This document shows positions 1 through 11,680 of a DNA stretch of 24,000 nucleotides, in pieces. Origin of the DNA: Thiogranum sp. (GTDB lineage: Bacteria; Pseudomonadota; Gammaproteobacteria; DSM-19610); NCBI GenBank assembly GCA_032251035.1, contig JAVVEV010000023.1:7545-31544 (forward strand), written 5' to 3'. Below the pieces are notes generated by a model. It was not told where the DNA came from. It searched no databases and saw nothing but the letters and a program-made list of their open reading frames with translations. The stretch's first letter is position 1; every line of letters starts with the position of its first letter. The translations under genes and the position numbers were made by a program.

Positions 1-1047
1 CCCTGTAAACTGGTCCAGGATGTCGTGCCTGAACGCGTTGATCACAACAAAATAAGCACGGCGACTTTCTTTACTATAGGCGAACTCCGCCAAATATCCG
101 TCACCATCACCTCCATGCCCGTATATCCGATGGCCGTTAAACCAGGTGTTGCGGATACCTAAACCATAGCCGATTTGCAAACCGGCTTTTGCGGCCAGTG
201 ATGTCTCCGCTACTTCCATTCTTTTCAACGCCGACCTGGAGACAATGTCTTCCCTCAAGTACGGCTCAGCAGTGAATAACAGCAGAAACTTCGCCATATC
301 GGCGGCTGTGGTGTTCAACCCGCCAAAAGGACGAAACAATGTGTGCCAGTAAGGTATCTCCGTTTTCAGATCGGCGTCATAGCCGGTGACGAGGCTTCGT
401 TCCACTTCCTCGGTCCAGTGCAACTGTGAATCGTGCATACCGATAGCGGTGAGGATTTCCCGCTCAAACCAGCTGTCGTAATCTTCTCTGGTGACGGTTT
501 CAATTGCACGACCGACATAACCCGCACCGAGATTCGAGTAGCCATAATGATAGCCAGGCGGCCACTGCAACTGCCTTGCTTCGGACTTGATGTCTAACGC
601 CGCCTGCAGGCTGAGCGGATCAGGGTAATCGAATTCTTCACGGGTCAGATCCTGCAAGCCCGCCGTGTGCTCCAGCAACATCGCCAGCGTCACCGGAGTT
701 TCGGGCCAGGAGTTGTGTAAAGGAAGATCAGGGACAACTGTTTTCACCGGCTGATCGAGATGTAACTCACCCTGCTCGACCAGGTGCATGACGGCAAGCG
801 CGGTGAAGGTTTTGGTGATGGAGCCCACGCGAAACAGACTCGTGGCTGTCACTGGGCGGGCGTCATCAACACCGTATTGACCCATCCCGCCTGTGGCGAC
901 GATTTGATTATTCTCAACCATGGCATAGGAAACCGCACCGATGCCGGTTTGTCGTTTAACCCGCTCGAGCTGCAACAGCAACTGGTCTGGCTCTGCCGCA
1001 ACTGGATTTGTTACAAGGAATGCGCAAACGGACAGAACCCAGAACAT
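1..1047 (-). CDS. Secreted serine hydrolase, beta-lactamase fold (class C / EstB / PBP4*-like); 3' end runs off the window
   Basis: My own minus-strand translation from the ATG at 1047 gives a signal-like N-terminus, MFWVLSVCAFLVTNPVAA. It then shows an SxxK motif (GSITKTF), a Y-S-N motif (YGYSNLGAGY) and GHGG late in the protein. The frame stays open to position 1. It is absent from the ORF track because there is no stop in the window. Confidence 0.75.
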   Translation of the reverse strand, partial: MFWVLSVCAFLVTNPVAAEPDQLLLQLERVKRQTGIGAVSYAMVENNQIVATGGMGQYGVDDARPVTATSLFRVGSITKTFTALAVMHLVEQGELHLDQPVKTVVPDLPLHNSWPETPVTLAMLLEHTAGLQDLTREEFDYPDPLSLQAALDIKSEARQLQWPPGYHYGYSNLGAGYVGRAIETVTREDYDSWFEREILTAIGMHDSQLHWTEEVERSLVTGYDADLKTEIPYWHTLFRPFGGLNTTAADMAKFLLLFTAEPYLREDIVSRSALKRMEVAETSLAAKAGLQIGYGLGIRNTWFNGHRIYGHGGDGDGYLAEFAYSKESRRAYFVVINAFRHDILDQFTG

Positions 1048-1087
1048 ATAGTGCCGCCACGGCAGGCTTCCCGTACACAGGTTCTTC

Positions 1088-2089
1088 CTAGCCATCGCCA
1101 TTATAAATACTCACTCTGATATCCGCATTGGCCGCATCATCCGTCAACGCCACATCATCTGTATAGCCATACGGGTCCGTAATCACACCGAGATCGGTCA
1201 GTATACGTCTGTAATCGGGCATCGCACGGCTGACCCTGTACTCGGCAAAAAGCAGTTTGAAAATTTCCACCCCTGCGAGTGAATCGAGCCGCTCCGCTAT
1301 CGAGGCGGCGGACATCGACTCGTGCTGGCAGCAATCCTTGAGTTCTTTGAGCACCCTGTCCAGGGTCATTTTATTCCGGGTTAGTTGCCTGAGTTTTATG
1401 TCCGCCGTCAGCCAGTAATGCACGCCGCTCCAGTGCACTCGCATGAAGCTGCGATACTTGCGCATATGATCACTGATCTCTACAAGCTCGATGTTAGACC
1501 ACTGGTTCTGTTTTTGCCCTCGAGCGAGACCGGCCGCCAGCTTGCCCCACAGGCCAGCTTCGCTCAAATGACCCGCGCGCGCCTGAATAATGTTCTGATA
1601 ATAGGTGGCAAGTCCTTCCGAAAACCACATATCGCCATACCCCCTGTACGGGATGAGCAAATGACTCAGCTCATGATATGCGGTCCAGTCACTCACGATC
1701 TCCTGAAAACCTGATTCAGCATCGAGAACCAGCAGCACGTGGTCTGGCTTGCCACGTGTAACCTGCCCCCAGGGTACCGGACTCTGAAGGCCCGAACCCT
1801 GTTTAATGGTGATATTGAATTTGTCGTCGGGCCATTCCCCGTAAACGGTCAGCAAAGCGTCGGAAACCATCTGTAACCATACATACGCCAGCTGACGTTC
1901 CTTTTTCGACATGGTGGATGCATAGTCGATATAGATACGCTGATACTGGTGCGCAATCGTGTCAGCACCTGCCGGCGCACTCACTGACAGCAAAGGCACC
2001 AGCGGGAGCACGTATCTCAAGCGCTGAAGCAGCCACAGACCGAATATCACGAACGCTGCGCAGTTCGGAAGTGCCAGCCTATCTGTCAA
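1088..2089 (-). CDS. Putative secreted zinc metallopeptidase, MA-clan (HExxH...E, Peptidase_MA_2-like)
   Basis: 333-aa ORF with a hydrophobic N-terminus. It has an HELSH motif followed 15 residues later by WFSEGLATYY, the gluzincin third-ligand context. The called TTG start overlaps the upstream TPR gene stop (TTGA), suggesting translational coupling. The family call is from motif memory only. Confidence 0.6.
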   Translation of the reverse strand: MTDRLALPNCAAFVIFGLWLLQRLRYVLPLVPLLSVSAPAGADTIAHQYQRIYIDYASTMSKKERQLAYVWLQMVSDALLTVYGEWPDDKFNITIKQGSGLQSPVPWGQVTRGKPDHVLLVLDAESGFQEIVSDWTAYHELSHLLIPYRGYGDMWFSEGLATYYQNIIQARAGHLSEAGLWGKLAAGLARGQKQNQWSNIELVEISDHMRKYRSFMRVHWSGVHYWLTADIKLRQLTRNKMTLDRVLKELKDCCQHESMSAASIAERLDSLAGVEIFKLLFAEYRVSRAMPDYRRILTDLGVITDPYGYTDDVALTDDAANADIRVSIYNGDG

Positions 2090-3147
2090 TTGGTCATCCT
2101 GAGTCCGGAGACCAGCGTCTGGATTTCGTCAAACATCTGCTGGCTGAATTCGATGGTTTCGGCGCGTTTTTCACCCGCGACTCTGATGGCTTCCAGACCC
2201 GCTCTGGCGATTCTGACTTGCGGGTGATCCTGACCGAAGTCTCCGCTCAAGAGAATCACTACCAGTTCAAACTGCGGTTTAGCTTCGTCCAGGCGTTTTC
2301 GTGATCCGTAGAAGCTTCCAAGTTCATTCAGAATGACAGCAAGCTCGAGGCGATCTTGTGCAGGCGCATCTTCCCAAACCTGTGCGGTTCGGCGATACAT
2401 CGCCGCCGCCTCAGAAAATCGTTTCTGATTTGAATAAAAATCGCCAAGATTGTGCATAGCCATGGCAGTATCCCGAGCATCCGCGCCGGCGCCTGTTTCC
2501 AGAAGATGCAGCGCCCGTTTAAGACGCTGTTCCGCGTCATCGAAACGTCCGTTCTTCATCGCCAGACCGGCCAGATCATTCAATCCTCTCGCGAGCGACG
2601 GGTGGATTGTTCCAAGAGCCTGCTCTTGTATTACCAGACTCCGTTCCAGCAGCTCCTCGGCCTCTGAATACCGATTCTGCGCAAGATATATAATTCCCAA
2701 CTCGTCGAGAACCAGAGCCAGCTTCAGGTCGTCGCCATTTAAACTGGATTGCGCGATCTCCACCACAGCCAGTTGATAGGCTTCAGCACTGGCATAATCT
2801 CCGCCCTTGAAGGCGTATCCAGCAGCGGCCCTCAAATAATCGGCGTTATCAGGATTCAGCAGCAATGCTTCTTCAATGAAGCGCTGCGCCAAATTGAAAT
2901 CTTTCCGATCTGCTGTAATCAGGCTCAGGTTGAACGCAGCCTCCGCTGCCTGTCGCCGCCTGCTCGTGCGTACCTGCTCGAAATAAAGCTCTGACGCTGC
3001 TTTGACTCCATCTTCCGGCTGACTCGACGAACCTGATGGGTCTTCGCCCATCAAATCAACCGTGGATGCCAGACCGCTGCCGCAGAATACGAGACTGAAA
3101 AACGACAGCGCGAATCGGAGTAATGTAGATCTGGACTGTGTGCCCAT
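2086..3147 (-). CDS. Secreted/lipoprotein-like TPR repeat protein
   Basis: Repeated TPR_10/12-like units, for example LALVLDELGIIYLAQNRYSEAEELLERSL and AMAMHNLGDFYSNQKRFSEAAAMYRRTAQ. I moved the start to the ATG at 3147 (MGTQSRSTLLRFALSFFSLVFCGSG), which has a strong RBS (GAAGGAGAAAATCT-ATG). The track start at 3234 adds 29 non-signal residues. Confidence 0.75.
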   Translation of the reverse strand: MGTQSRSTLLRFALSFFSLVFCGSGLASTVDLMGEDPSGSSSQPEDGVKAASELYFEQVRTSRRRQAAEAAFNLSLITADRKDFNLAQRFIEEALLLNPDNADYLRAAAGYAFKGGDYASAEAYQLAVVEIAQSSLNGDDLKLALVLDELGIIYLAQNRYSEAEELLERSLVIQEQALGTIHPSLARGLNDLAGLAMKNGRFDDAEQRLKRALHLLETGAGADARDTAMAMHNLGDFYSNQKRFSEAAAMYRRTAQVWEDAPAQDRLELAVILNELGSFYGSRKRLDEAKPQFELVVILLSGDFGQDHPQVRIARAGLEAIRVAGEKRAETIEFSQQMFDEIQTLVSGLRMTN

Positions 3148-3365
3148 AGATTTTCTCCTTCGATATTCATGGAAACGCGAAGCGGCCATGAGCACCTGTT
3201 GACGTCGATGTACGCAGTTACCGACGGTGCGCACAGACTATTTTGATCGGTCCGGTCATGCTTCGAGAAAAGTTATGACTGGTTAATTCTTTGTCGAACG
3301 AATTCCGTGGACATTACAGTTTTATCGCGCTGAGGGGCGGGATGAGCAACAGGCCGCAACCGATG

Positions 3366-3394
3366 GGAACCGATGAAGCAAATGACTTGTCTAC
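3366..3394 (+). promoter_or_regulatory. Candidate ECF-type promoter GGAACC-N17-GTCTAC upstream of the Gly/Tyr/His-rich gene
   Basis: The sequence is GGGAACCGATGAAGCAAATGACTTGTCTACCGG. It has the same architecture as the site upstream of the ECF sigma gene at 10995 (GGAACCG-N16-GTC-NNN-CGG). It lies about 75 nt upstream of the ATG at 3470 in the correct orientation. Confidence 0.35.
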
Positions 3395-3469
3395 CGGTTA
3401 GCGAGCGACACAGCAGCCATATGCCTACCTTTAAACGATGTCAGAAAACGACCCCACGGAGCCACAACC

Positions 3470-3784
3470 ATGAACAAGATCCCGGCCCTGAATTTTTCCG
3501 CCCTTTTGAAGATAGCCGCACTGATAATGATCATGTTTGCATTCACACCGGGCCAGGTACTGGCGGGTTATGGCTACGGCTACAGCCATCAGGACCGGCA
3601 CTACGGGTACCGGGGCGGGCATCAGCGAGGGAATTACGGGCACAATTACGTTTACAAAAACCGCTATTATGGAAGTCACGGCAGACATCACAGGTACTAC
3701 AACAGGGGATACTACAGCGGTTATCGCGGATCTAACGGGCATTCCAGCAGTCGTCGTCACGGGTCCTTAAAGCGCCATCGCTGA
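3470..3784 (+). CDS. Small secreted low-complexity protein rich in Gly/Tyr/His/Arg
   Basis: 104 aa. GGAG lies 8 nt upstream of the ATG. A 32-aa signal-like N-terminus ends in VLA. The 72-aa mature part has, by my count, 15 Tyr, 15 Gly, 12 Arg, 10 His and a single acidic residue. Three overlapping shadow ORFs on both strands are explained by the repetitive codon content. Confidence 0.55.
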   Translation: MNKIPALNFSALLKIAALIMIMFAFTPGQVLAGYGYGYSHQDRHYGYRGGHQRGNYGHNYVYKNRYYGSHGRHHRYYNRGYYSGYRGSNGHSSSRRHGSLKRHR

Positions 3785-3933
3785 TCAATAAAAAAACCGG
3801 ATTCGCAGACCCGGAATCCAGACAGGGCGCATAACCTTGCCACTGGATCGGCAGCATGCTGATGGCCATACCATGCTTATCATGAAACAATAAAAAACAT
3901 ATCGGCAGCTGAGTCCGATAGTCACCGGAGAAA

Positions 3934-4473
3934 ATGTTTATGCGACACCTGTTCCTGTTCCTGGCATTAATACTTACCCAGCCGGTTGGAGCCGATCAGT
4001 CCGCGCCACCGGCGGAAGGAAATACAATGGACAACGCGCGTCTGCAGGCACTCATTGAAGGTATTGCCACGGATATTGAGGGACAACCCGGCTACTGGCG
4101 CTTTGACATCGAGAGCTTTCCCGTGAGCGTGATAACAGACGAAAAGGCAGACCGCATGCGCATCATCGTTCCGGTCGCGGAGGTCGGCGCCATGGATGCT
4201 GAGCGGCTGATGCGCCTCATGCAGGCCAATTTCGATTCCGCACTGGATACGCGCTACTCGATTGCCCAGGGCCTGTTGTGGAGCGCGTTCATCCACCCGC
4301 TGTCGGCATTGTCTGATCGGCAATTTATCGATGGACTGGCGCAGACCGTCAATCTGGCCGCGACCTATGGCAGCAGCTACAGCTCCGGTGCCCTGATCTT
4401 CAGCGGCGGCGACAGCCAGGGGGAGCAGGACAAGATCTACCGGGCGATTATCGAGCGCGACAGCTCTATCTGA
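3934..4473 (+). CDS. Secreted hypothetical protein, tentatively CesT/YbjN-like chaperone fold
   Basis: 179 aa with a signal-like N-terminus, (MF)MRHLFLFLALILTQPVGA. The core DRMRIIVPV...LMQANFDSALDTRYSIAQGLLWSAFIHPL resembles CesT/YbjN-family proteins from memory. The alternative start at 3940 is better spaced from the GGAG. Confidence 0.45.
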   Translation: MFMRHLFLFLALILTQPVGADQSAPPAEGNTMDNARLQALIEGIATDIEGQPGYWRFDIESFPVSVITDEKADRMRIIVPVAEVGAMDAERLMRLMQANFDSALDTRYSIAQGLLWSAFIHPLSALSDRQFIDGLAQTVNLAATYGSSYSSGALIFSGGDSQGEQDKIYRAIIERDSSI

Positions 4474-4481
4474 GAAAGCTC

Positions 4482-4976
4482 TTGTTCACGCCGATGTTGT
4501 TCCTGTATCTGTTCATCGGTGCGTTCGCATCGGCGGCGGCGGCCAGCGATACATTGCCGGTGCACGATGCATTCGCGCGCGCCGACCGTGGTGAGCTGAC
4601 ACTCATCGACATCCGCAGCTCGCAGGAGTGGCTTGAAACCGGCATCCCCTCTCCTGCCCGCGCTTTGTCGATGTACGACCGGGATTTTCTGCTGCAACTG
4701 AATAACATCATCGTCGCGACCGACAACCGGCCAGTCGCATTTATCTGCGCCACCGGAAGTCGTTCCGCCTGGCTGAGGCAGGCGCTGGCGGCACGCGGCA
4801 TGTTAAATCTGCTGGATGTCCCGGAGGGCATGCTGGGCAATTCGGCCGGCCCTGGCTGGCTCCGCGCCGGCCTGCCGGTCCGTCCTTACGACGGTCCCGA
4901 CCCGCGGCACGCGCCGACCTACAGTCTCTGGGAGCGGTTGCGCGGTAGCTACCGGCCGCCCTGGTTCGCACATTAA
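4482..4976 (+). CDS. Secreted rhodanese-domain sulfurtransferase
   Basis: 164 aa with a signal-like N-terminus. It has a rhodanese active-site loop, CATGSRS, preceded by LIDIRSSQEW. The start is either the TTG at 4482 or the ATG at 4494. It lies 8 nt after the previous gene. Confidence 0.7.
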   Translation: MFTPMLFLYLFIGAFASAAAASDTLPVHDAFARADRGELTLIDIRSSQEWLETGIPSPARALSMYDRDFLLQLNNIIVATDNRPVAFICATGSRSAWLRQALAARGMLNLLDVPEGMLGNSAGPGWLRAGLPVRPYDGPDPRHAPTYSLWERLRGSYRPPWFAH

Positions 4977-10773: not shown

Positions 10774-10994
10774 ATTGCACTCCGGCTGCGCCGACGTTTC
10801 TGCGGAGTGATTGTCGGACGTTACGTCAGGCGGATTCATTGGGAAATTCTGACATGGTTGTATTCGAGCCTGCGGTGGTGGAGCTGCTACAGAGCAACAA
10901 AGTTATCGACAACATCAAGTCGTGCGAGTTCAAAGATCGGACGGCGGATGCGAACCGGCAGGAGCACGTTCTGCAAGGCGTTTCGGACACGGCA

Positions 10995-11023
10995 GGAACC
11001 GTCTGGCCACGCCGGTAGTCATA
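10995..11023 (+). promoter_or_regulatory. Candidate autoregulatory ECF-type promoter GGAACC-N17-GTCATA
   Basis: The sequence is AGGAACCGTCTGGCCACGCCGGTAGTCATACGG, about 40 nt upstream of the sigma ATG. The GGAAC-N18-GTC spacing equals that of the published SigR/SigH-type consensus (GGAAT-N18-GTT). The same pattern occurs at 3366. Confidence 0.4.
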
Positions 11024-11065
11024 CGGCATAATTACCCTCTTTCTCGGTCAGCCGGAATAACATGT

Positions 11066-11680
11066 ATGGGTGAAGCAGCCGACAACTCCGCCTTCCCGGA
11101 ACCGGATCCCGGGCGCTGGCTGCAGGATTATGGCGATGTGCTGTATCGCTACGCGCTGCAGCGTCTGCGCGACTCCGCACACGCCGAAGATCTGGTGCAG
11201 GAGACGCTGCTGGCGGCGTTTCAGGCGCGCGCAAGCTACTCCGGCCGTTCTTCCGAGAAGACCTGGCTCATCGGCATTCTCAAGCACAAGGTGGTTGATT
11301 TCATTCGCACGCAGGTGCGCGAGTCGACCGTGGATGACATCAGCGCCTTGTCGGACAAGGGAGTGGAACATGATATCGACGACCTGTTCGACGCACGCGG
11401 CTTCTGGGTGCGCCCGCCAAGGGATTGGGGGAATCCGGACGCGGCACTGCATAACGATGAGTTTCTTGCCGCCTTCGAAGCGTGCCTGGCGCGTCTGAAG
11501 CCCGCTCTTGCCCAGGTCTTCGCTCTAAAGGAACTCGTCGGCCAGTCCAGCGAAGAGATCTGCAGGGAACTCGGGATTTCGACCACCAACTGTGGCGTAA
11601 TGCTATATCGCGCCCGCATGGGGCTGAGGCGCTGTCTCGATGTGCAGTGGCCCGGCGGCAATTCCAAAGGCACAAAATAA
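11066..11680 (+). CDS. ECF (group IV) sigma-70 family RNA polymerase sigma factor
   Basis: The sigma-2 region is LYRYALQRLRDSAHAEDLVQETLLAAF...WLIGILKHKVVDFIR. The sigma-4 HTH is SSEEICRELGISTTNCGVMLYRARMGLR. I moved the start to the ATG at 11066 (MGEAADNS). The track start at 10922 adds 48 Arg-rich residues. Confidence 0.85.
   Translation: MGEAADNSAFPEPDPGRWLQDYGDVLYRYALQRLRDSAHAEDLVQETLLAAFQARASYSGRSSEKTWLIGILKHKVVDFIRTQVRESTVDDISALSDKGVEHDIDDLFDARGFWVRPPRDWGNPDAALHNDEFLAAFEACLARLKPALAQVFALKELVGQSSEEICRELGISTTNCGVMLYRARMGLRRCLDVQWPGGNSKGTK

Follow-up and report, generated by a model that had tools for sequence, protein, structure and literature searches.

The sulfur globule proteins (SGPs) are Sec-exported, Gly/Tyr-rich proteins whose number varies among organisms (PMC10386293, PMC8877833) and which are described as extremely hydrophobic (PMC10386293); for SgpD, presence in the sulfur globule has been examined by globule proteomics or with a fluorescent fusion (PMC10386293). 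Where a truncated Sox system is combined with rDsr, stored sulfur is an obligatory intermediate, as established by Dahl and co-workers (PMC10386293). SgpA, SgpB and SgpC of Allochromatium vinosum (PF17228) and their Thiogranum relatives offer the nearest comparison for the subject of this analysis, a 104-residue ORF (here ORF 3470) in a 24,000 nt stretch of DNA from Thiogranum sp. (the window). Like its predicted product, these SGPs are small, Sec-exported, Gly/Tyr-rich and of low complexity, their setting is likewise a sulfur oxidizer with rDsr and truncated Sox, and the canonical SGPs of the relatives contain a central GHGSGRGYGRGYGYDRYYGGY block (G-R-G-Y / D-R-Y-Y) with the same residue vocabulary. 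The ORF 3470 protein differs from them in that it is PF17228-negative, strongly basic and very hydrophilic, whereas SGP-like proteins are nearly free of Arg, Lys and His; it also lacks both the WWG N-terminal motif and the AP/YG tail, and is conserved in no relative.

SilE/PcoE and ZraP are also exported, wholly or partly disordered and His-containing, and they are stress-inducible. These proteins are encoded in metal-resistance or two-component operons, however, and their His residues are paired with Met or acidic residues, whereas the ORF 3470 protein is a polycation with one acidic residue and a Met-free mature part. It matches neither the CpxP/Spy/ZraP (LTXXQ) nor the SilE/PcoE profiles, has no Pfam match and is not encoded in a metal-resistance operon, its actual neighbours being genes for a TPR protein, an M61-like peptidase, a chaperone-like protein and a rhodanese.

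Mussel foot protein 3, the His-rich proteins of squid beak, the histatins and FUS-type Tyr/Arg domains are small, basic, disordered chains rich in Gly, Tyr, Arg, His and Asn, and they act through multivalent adhesion, coacervation or metal binding. A likeness to eukaryotic Gly/Tyr and Gly/His peptides had been drawn when ORF 3470 was first described from its sequence (the original prediction); it holds as a compositional analogy but not as homology, and the setting differs, being a presumed Gram-negative periplasm with no sign of Tyr modification enzymes.

The predicted protein and the search for relatives

Re-translation reproduced exactly the ORF that had been proposed, with its signal peptide and 72-residue remainder (Table 1), as well as the count of 52 Gly, Tyr, His and Arg residues in the latter (G15, Y15, R12, H10), the single acidic residue (an Asp) and the absence of Cys. 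Eight Ser and five Asn residues are also present, and Trp, Phe, Pro, Ala, Met, Ile, Thr and Glu are lacking. The mature part has a mass of 8.7 kDa, a pI of 10.35 and a GRAVY value of -2.02; Arg, Lys and His make up 33 % of its residues, with 14 Arg or Lys against one Asp or Glu, and its computed charge is +13.6 at pH 7 and +20.5 at pH 5.5. The signal peptide carries Lys at positions 3 and 14, is a confident helix in a single-sequence AF2 model, and passes a heuristic rule, as only 4.3 % of all the genome's candidate ORF starts do. For the mature part the single-sequence model gives a pLDDT below 55 and no secondary structure, which is weak evidence, and we regard this part as probably disordered. 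The signal peptide is the basis on which the protein would be placed in the periplasm, where it would most likely act physically and not as an enzyme.

Table 1. Coordinates of ORF 3470, of features near it and of the other loci discussed. Positions are those of the window unless a contig or another locus is named.
Feature	Position	Strand	Remarks
Operon of three exported proteins	1-3234	-	Divergent from ORF 3470
ECF-type promoter-like core GGAACC-N17-GTC	3366..3391	+	About 79 nt upstream of the ORF 3470 start codon
Antisense ORF	3431-3760	-	Opposite ORF 3470
Shine-Dalgarno-like GGAG	3458..3461	+	8 nt ahead of ATG 3470; read from sequence
ORF 3470	3470-3784	+	104 aa by translation; stop codon 3782-3784
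Signal peptide, 32 aa, Sec-type	3470..3565	+	Lys-containing n-region, hydrophobic core, V-L-A ahead of predicted cut
Mature Gly/Tyr/His/Arg-rich polycationic region, 72 aa	3566..3781	+	From composition of the translation
Hairpin followed by seven-T run	3797..3814	- only	Consensus scan; not a canonical terminator for ORF 3470
Exported acidic 179-aa protein	3934..4473	+	Mature pI 4.3, charge -11; 150 bp downstream of ORF 3470
Rhodanese-domain protein, signal-peptide-like N-terminus	4482..4976	+	Pfam Rhodanese, E = 1.1e-6
Autoregulatory sigma motif, first copy	10994-11026		Upstream of the sigma gene in the window
TIGR02943-family ECF sigma gene	11066-11677		Followed by a small ZAS-type anti-sigma gene
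Autoregulatory sigma motif, second copy	contig C16:24864-24892		Upstream of the second sigma copy
GGYPGYY-repeat secreted protein	contig C70:94167-94461	+	Also L026 4127-4465
EF-hand-like exported protein	contig C66 ~72,950-73,400	+
His/Arg-rich secreted protein family	L040 7943-8407	-	154-170 aa in the three loci
His/Arg-rich secreted protein family	L043 7908-8396	-
His/Arg-rich secreted protein family	L046 7976-8488	-

No match to Pfam or NCBIfam profiles was obtained for the ORF 3470 protein (hmmscan, E <= 0.1 for Pfam). A word-indexed search of 5.8 billion proteins returned the protein itself as the sole match, and phmmer against 1.84 billion representative proteins, a homologue search of the kind that the original prediction had called for, found no true relative, the query being joined only by one spurious repeat protein (E = 6e-4). 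Back-translated pattern scans of genome and metagenome contig collections yielded no match; a six-frame protein search of 41 relatives gave weak matches only, and the four that were inspected are noise; and positions 3235-3933, compared as DNA with 45 genomes of the order, gave no match. The earlier statement that the protein belongs to no recognizable bacterial family is thus borne out by both the profile and the homologue searches.

Synteny gave a similar result. Orthologues of the right neighbour (57-78 % identity) have no counterpart of ORF 3470 beside them, and other genes lie ahead of them; in L027, the closest relative found, the right-neighbour orthologues follow an 891-aa ORF, with gaps of ~175 and 43 bp. 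The left neighbour, the TPR gene, has orthologues in only two of the 44 other genomes of the order, and the one of these with a readable upstream region has a two-component system there, not a counterpart of ORF 3470. When six-frame HMMER was run with a comparable His/Arg-rich protein, it missed the two obvious relatives of that protein (E <= 0.001), and 'orphan' calls for such proteins are therefore soft. With searches that are near-blind to sequences of this kind, ORF 3470 appears so far to be unique and species-restricted, and, since no homologue was found, there is no evidence of purifying selection on it. A W/R/H-rich ORF on contig C66 that came under consideration is an out-of-frame artefact of the gene for an EF-hand protein. 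The product of that gene is exported and has EF-hand-like DxDxDG motifs and a Gly/Met/Pro-rich C-terminal tail.

Genomic surroundings and coding status

ORF 3470 is transcriptionally divergent from a translationally coupled operon that encodes a TPR protein, an M61-like HExxH peptidase and a beta-lactamase-like serine hydrolase, the first two of which have Pfam matches. The operon has a mol% G+C of 50-55, below the genome value of 58; it is probably an islet that is variable or was acquired, and ORF 3470 lies at its edge. The acidic protein encoded immediately downstream matches no Pfam or NCBIfam profile, but its AF2 model (pLDDT 78, from a 29-sequence alignment) is matched by Foldseek to ExsC, SycH, SycE and CesT, which are type III secretion class I chaperones, and to YbjN; on this model it would have a chaperone fold, and the periplasm is its predicted place of work. 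The family is conserved in the Thiohalobacterales and in the Roseobacter group. The rhodanese gene starts 9 nt after it, ~700 bp downstream of ORF 3470, and the pair is kept in L027. The original prediction overlooked both this chaperone-like neighbour and the sulfur-oxidizer context, and it proposed a functional link to the bufferin RiPP locus in the window, for which we find no support; that locus lies 12 kb away, beyond unrelated operons.

A family of secreted proteins, whose members six-frame HMMER does not retrieve from one another, occurs in three loci of uncultured Gammaproteobacteria (L040, L043 and L046), in each case about 2.4-3 kb downstream of an orthologue of the chaperone-like gene. 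Its members resemble the ORF 3470 protein in joining a signal peptide to a polycationic H/R/Y/G low-complexity chain and in their location near that orthologue. They differ in being twice as long, in their content of His, Arg and Lys (~50 %), in being Asp-rich, in possessing a conserved hydrophobic C-terminal motif, and in being part of a PepSY-two-component operon; in L040, to judge from the translations, the family gene presumably heads an operon with genes for a PepSY-like small exported protein, a response regulator and a sensor kinase. Kinship of ORF 3470 with this family was rejected, 40 % of shuffles of its sequence scoring at least equally.

We consider it probable that ORF 3470 is a real, translated gene. 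Codon log-odds rank its frame first among the six, at -0.04 per codon; the antisense ORF reaches -0.19, and the remaining frames score lower. Codon position two is a purine in 67 of the 72 mature codons (93 %), with position three varied, and all four Gly codons, all six Arg codons (CGN and AGR), both Tyr codons, both His codons and both families of Ser codons are used. Tandem Repeats Finder detects no tandem DNA repeat in the ORF. The use of all synonymous codons and the lack of a tandem repeat indicate that the bias is imposed at the amino acid level and is not the remnant of a DNA repeat, and an origin by tandem repetition was rejected. When the DNA coding for the mature part was shuffled 20,000 times by mononucleotide, the number of Gly, Tyr, His and Arg residues never exceeded 33, against 52 in the ORF itself, and only 4 % of the shuffles were free of stop codons. 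Each of the 15 Tyr codons is one transversion away from a stop, and all are intact. No possible start precedes ATG 3470 in the open frame, and no other is available; the protein is also present in a gene-called protein collection, where it derives from a 47,433-bp contig.

The rival view, that this is a non-functional chance frame or a very young open frame (a proto-gene) in a variable islet of lower mol% G+C, seems to us unlikely, although several observations speak for it. Relatives are absent from the databases, related genomes and syntenic positions searched. Compared with 104-codon pieces taken from long native genes, synonymous codon usage falls at the 3.5th percentile, and it lies near the mean of out-of-frame shadow ORFs (likelihood ratio 0.18), with GGG at six of 16 Gly codons and AGR at three of 12 Arg codons. 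Local mol% G+C is 50-54 against 58 in the genome, and three further frames are also open across the stretch, a by-product of its low complexity. A canonical terminator is absent as well, neither a consensus scan nor folding revealing an intrinsic terminator for ORF 3470 on the plus strand; for the hairpin beyond its stop codon the folding energy is -10.1 kcal/mol in the minus-strand sequence and -7.6 kcal/mol in the plus-strand sequence, and neither value beats those of shuffles. Against a proto-gene stand the amino acid bias spread over all synonymous codons, the lack of any stop despite 15 stop-adjacent Tyr codons, the coincidence of a well-formed signal peptide (base rate <=4.3 %) with a Shine-Dalgarno sequence placed exactly at the first start codon, and the intergenic gap of ~700 bp that would be left if the ORF were discounted. 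If real, the gene would be young, acquired or weakly expressed.

An opposite-strand ORF had been named in the original prediction as the rival reading of this DNA. It does exist, but its codon log-odds are below those of ORF 3470 and a search for its homologues was empty; neither it nor two other plus-strand ORFs across the stretch have a Pfam match (only VIT1, E = 0.47). These other ORFs were rejected as shadows of low-complexity codons. No known RNA family is found at positions 2900-4300. We note separately that on the minus strand the hairpin and T-run resemble an intrinsic terminator, and that no minus-strand gene ends there.

The sulfur-oxidizer setting and a possible envelope role

The genome carries dsrA, dsrB and soxB, and soxC was not found in it; these genes mark the host, a Thiogranum-like bacterium, as a sulfur oxidizer. 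PF17228 has no match at E <= 10 in a six-frame search of the whole genome, which is 98.9 % complete. In the order, 29 of the 44 other genomes have matches to this family at E <= 0.01 (one to seven per genome), and 28 exceed the family cut-off of 26.7 bits. Signal-peptide ORFs with a low-complexity mature part of the Gly/Tyr type number two in the whole genome, namely ORF 3470 and the gene for a GGYPGYY-repeat protein. The signal peptide of the latter closely resembles those of canonical SGPs, and its relatives include proteins, all annotated as 'hypothetical', from MAGs labelled as symbionts of tubeworms (Lamellibrachia) or lucinid clams (Thiodiazotropha) and from Magnetococcales.

When compared with what characterizes an SGP, ORF 3470 gives a mixed picture. 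A Sec signal (32 aa) and a mature mass within the range of ~8-13 kDa are present. The very hydrophobic, near-uncharged Gly/Tyr(/Trp/Pro) composition is not, and neither is a PF17228 profile match; among 71 SGP-like proteins, Arg plus Lys is mostly 0-5 % and His mostly 0-4 %. Against a profile built from seven Thiogranum SGPs the protein scores -15.1 bits, a value that 63 % of 1,000 composition-preserving shuffles equal or exceed, and comparisons of ORF 3470 with SGP sequences by tblastx and blastn return low-complexity noise only. An origin of ORF 3470 from an SGP gene, whether in frame or out of frame, was rejected on these grounds. To judge from its sequence the protein is not a member of the SGP family, and it would be a functional analogue at most.

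The explanation that we favour, tentatively, is that ORF 3470 encodes a multivalent 'sticker' protein of the cell envelope, perhaps one accessory to sulfur globules. The protein would be exported by the Sec pathway and its 32-residue signal peptide cleaved after V-L-A, releasing an unstructured chain of 72 residues with a charge of about +14 at neutral pH and about +20 once the ten His residues are protonated. Its 15 Tyr and 12 Arg residues, spaced by Gly, Ser and Asn, could make many weak aromatic, cation-pi, hydrogen-bond and electrostatic contacts, through which the chain could attach to envelope surfaces that are polyanionic or made of sulfur or mineral, or could condense on them. The specific role that we prefer is an accessory one in the coat or matrix of sulfur globules in the periplasm, which would make the protein analogous to the SGPs in function and not homologous to them. 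Counted in favour of the sticker or globule reading are the presence of dsrAB and of soxB without soxC, the absence of PF17228, the finding of only two Gly/Tyr-type signal-peptide ORFs and the nearby rhodanese gene; counted against it are the shuffle-level score with the SGP profile, the high basicity, the codon usage and the lack of any homologue or conserved synteny. We infer expression, cleavage, disorder, the binding mode and the link to sulfur globules.

Alternative roles

A rather doubtful alternative is that the gene is driven by an ECF sigma factor under envelope, thiol or metal stress, and that the His/Tyr-rich chain takes up metal ions, protons or oxidants in the manner of SilE/PcoE or of the His-rich ZraP tails. 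The composition lends itself to this idea, with ten His among the 72 mature residues, and in a related gammaproteobacterial lineage the secreted His/Arg-rich protein heads the PepSY-response regulator-kinase operon described above. Cation binding is disfavoured, however, by a net charge of +13.6 with a single acidic residue, so that the 'metal sponge' of the original prediction is electrostatically awkward, and there are no metal-resistance genes adjoining ORF 3470.

The promoter evidence for such a stress response is similarly divided. The window encodes an ECF sigma factor of the TIGR02943 family; a paralogue with 76 % identity is encoded on another contig, and three members of the genus have orthologues. 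All five sigma genes have the motif GGAACY-RTY-N14-GTCRKA ~100 nt upstream of their aligned start, and the site upstream of ORF 3470 has the same core and spacing as this autoregulatory site. The chance of finding the core within ~120 nt upstream of a given gene is ~6e-4, or ~0.01 window-wide, as calculated from its 32 equally good matches in the genome. Those 32 sites are about the number expected by chance, however, and the extended conserved positions are unmatched at ORF 3470: the extended matrix gives this site a score of -0.98, where 28.8 is the maximum, and an equal or better score is reached at 26,073 positions of the genome. In four genomes the strict motif identifies only the sigma genes' own promoters, and no regulon can therefore be defined. 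Of the ECF promoter in the original prediction, the core is matched and the extended motif is not; as a promoter for ORF 3470 it is an idea that is alive, if weakly, and not established. No sigma-70-like promoter was found in positions 3000-4200.

Two other candidates in this connection were rejected. The SigAb system of Acinetobacter does not serve as a model, its promoter being different (GTCAAC / CGTT; PMC12153292), and the ECF-like site on contig C12, the third of its kind, falls within a tRNA gene. As an observation on the sigma factor itself, the limitation of its motif to the sigma genes' own promoters in those four genomes suggests a very small direct regulon.

It is improbable, in our view, that the ORF 3470 protein is a client of the acidic protein encoded downstream, on which it would depend for its solubility or for its delivery inside the periplasm. 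Type III secretion class I chaperones hold extended polypeptides, and the model of the acidic protein matches several of these; it has a signal peptide, and its negative charge is strikingly complementary to the +13.6 of ORF 3470. In L040, L043 and L046, moreover, the orthologue lies within ~2.4 kb of a secreted His/Arg-rich gene. The chaperone-like family is nevertheless found in ~80 loci without a counterpart of ORF 3470, including that of the closest relative, its gene pairs tightly with the rhodanese gene instead, and the three supporting loci probably represent one lineage, in which the association was noticed post hoc. We see a similarly slim chance that a newly born or ultra-fast-evolving gene encodes an exported Tyr/Arg/His 'sticker-spacer' polycation that would condense on sulfur or other anionic surfaces of the periplasm, switched by pH through its ten His residues and perhaps handled by this acidic chaperone-fold neighbour; if true, the two would represent a hitherto undescribed kind of periplasmic chaperone-client pair. 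That the protein acts against competitors, as a cationic antimicrobial or bacteriocin-like peptide, is scarcely credible. In composition it does recall several eukaryotic antimicrobial peptides, being small, rich in Gly, Tyr and His and strongly positive in charge, but genes for immunity, export or maturation are absent nearby, a Sec signal by itself would take the product no further than the periplasm of the producer, and there is no match to any bacteriocin family.

Returning to the envelope protein that we favour, its practical value is limited at present, as a single sequence from an uncultured genome, and proteins of this composition are systematically invisible to homology searches. ORF 3470 would be a clean case of a taxonomically restricted secreted gene. 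If expressed, it would provide a bacterium with a protein built on the residue grammar that marks adhesive and phase-separating proteins of eukaryotes, with Tyr and Arg as stickers, Gly and Ser as spacers and His as a pH switch. The setting would be the periplasm of a chemolithotroph that stores sulfur and has lost the canonical SGP family, and the protein could reveal how globules are coated where the usual SGPs are absent.
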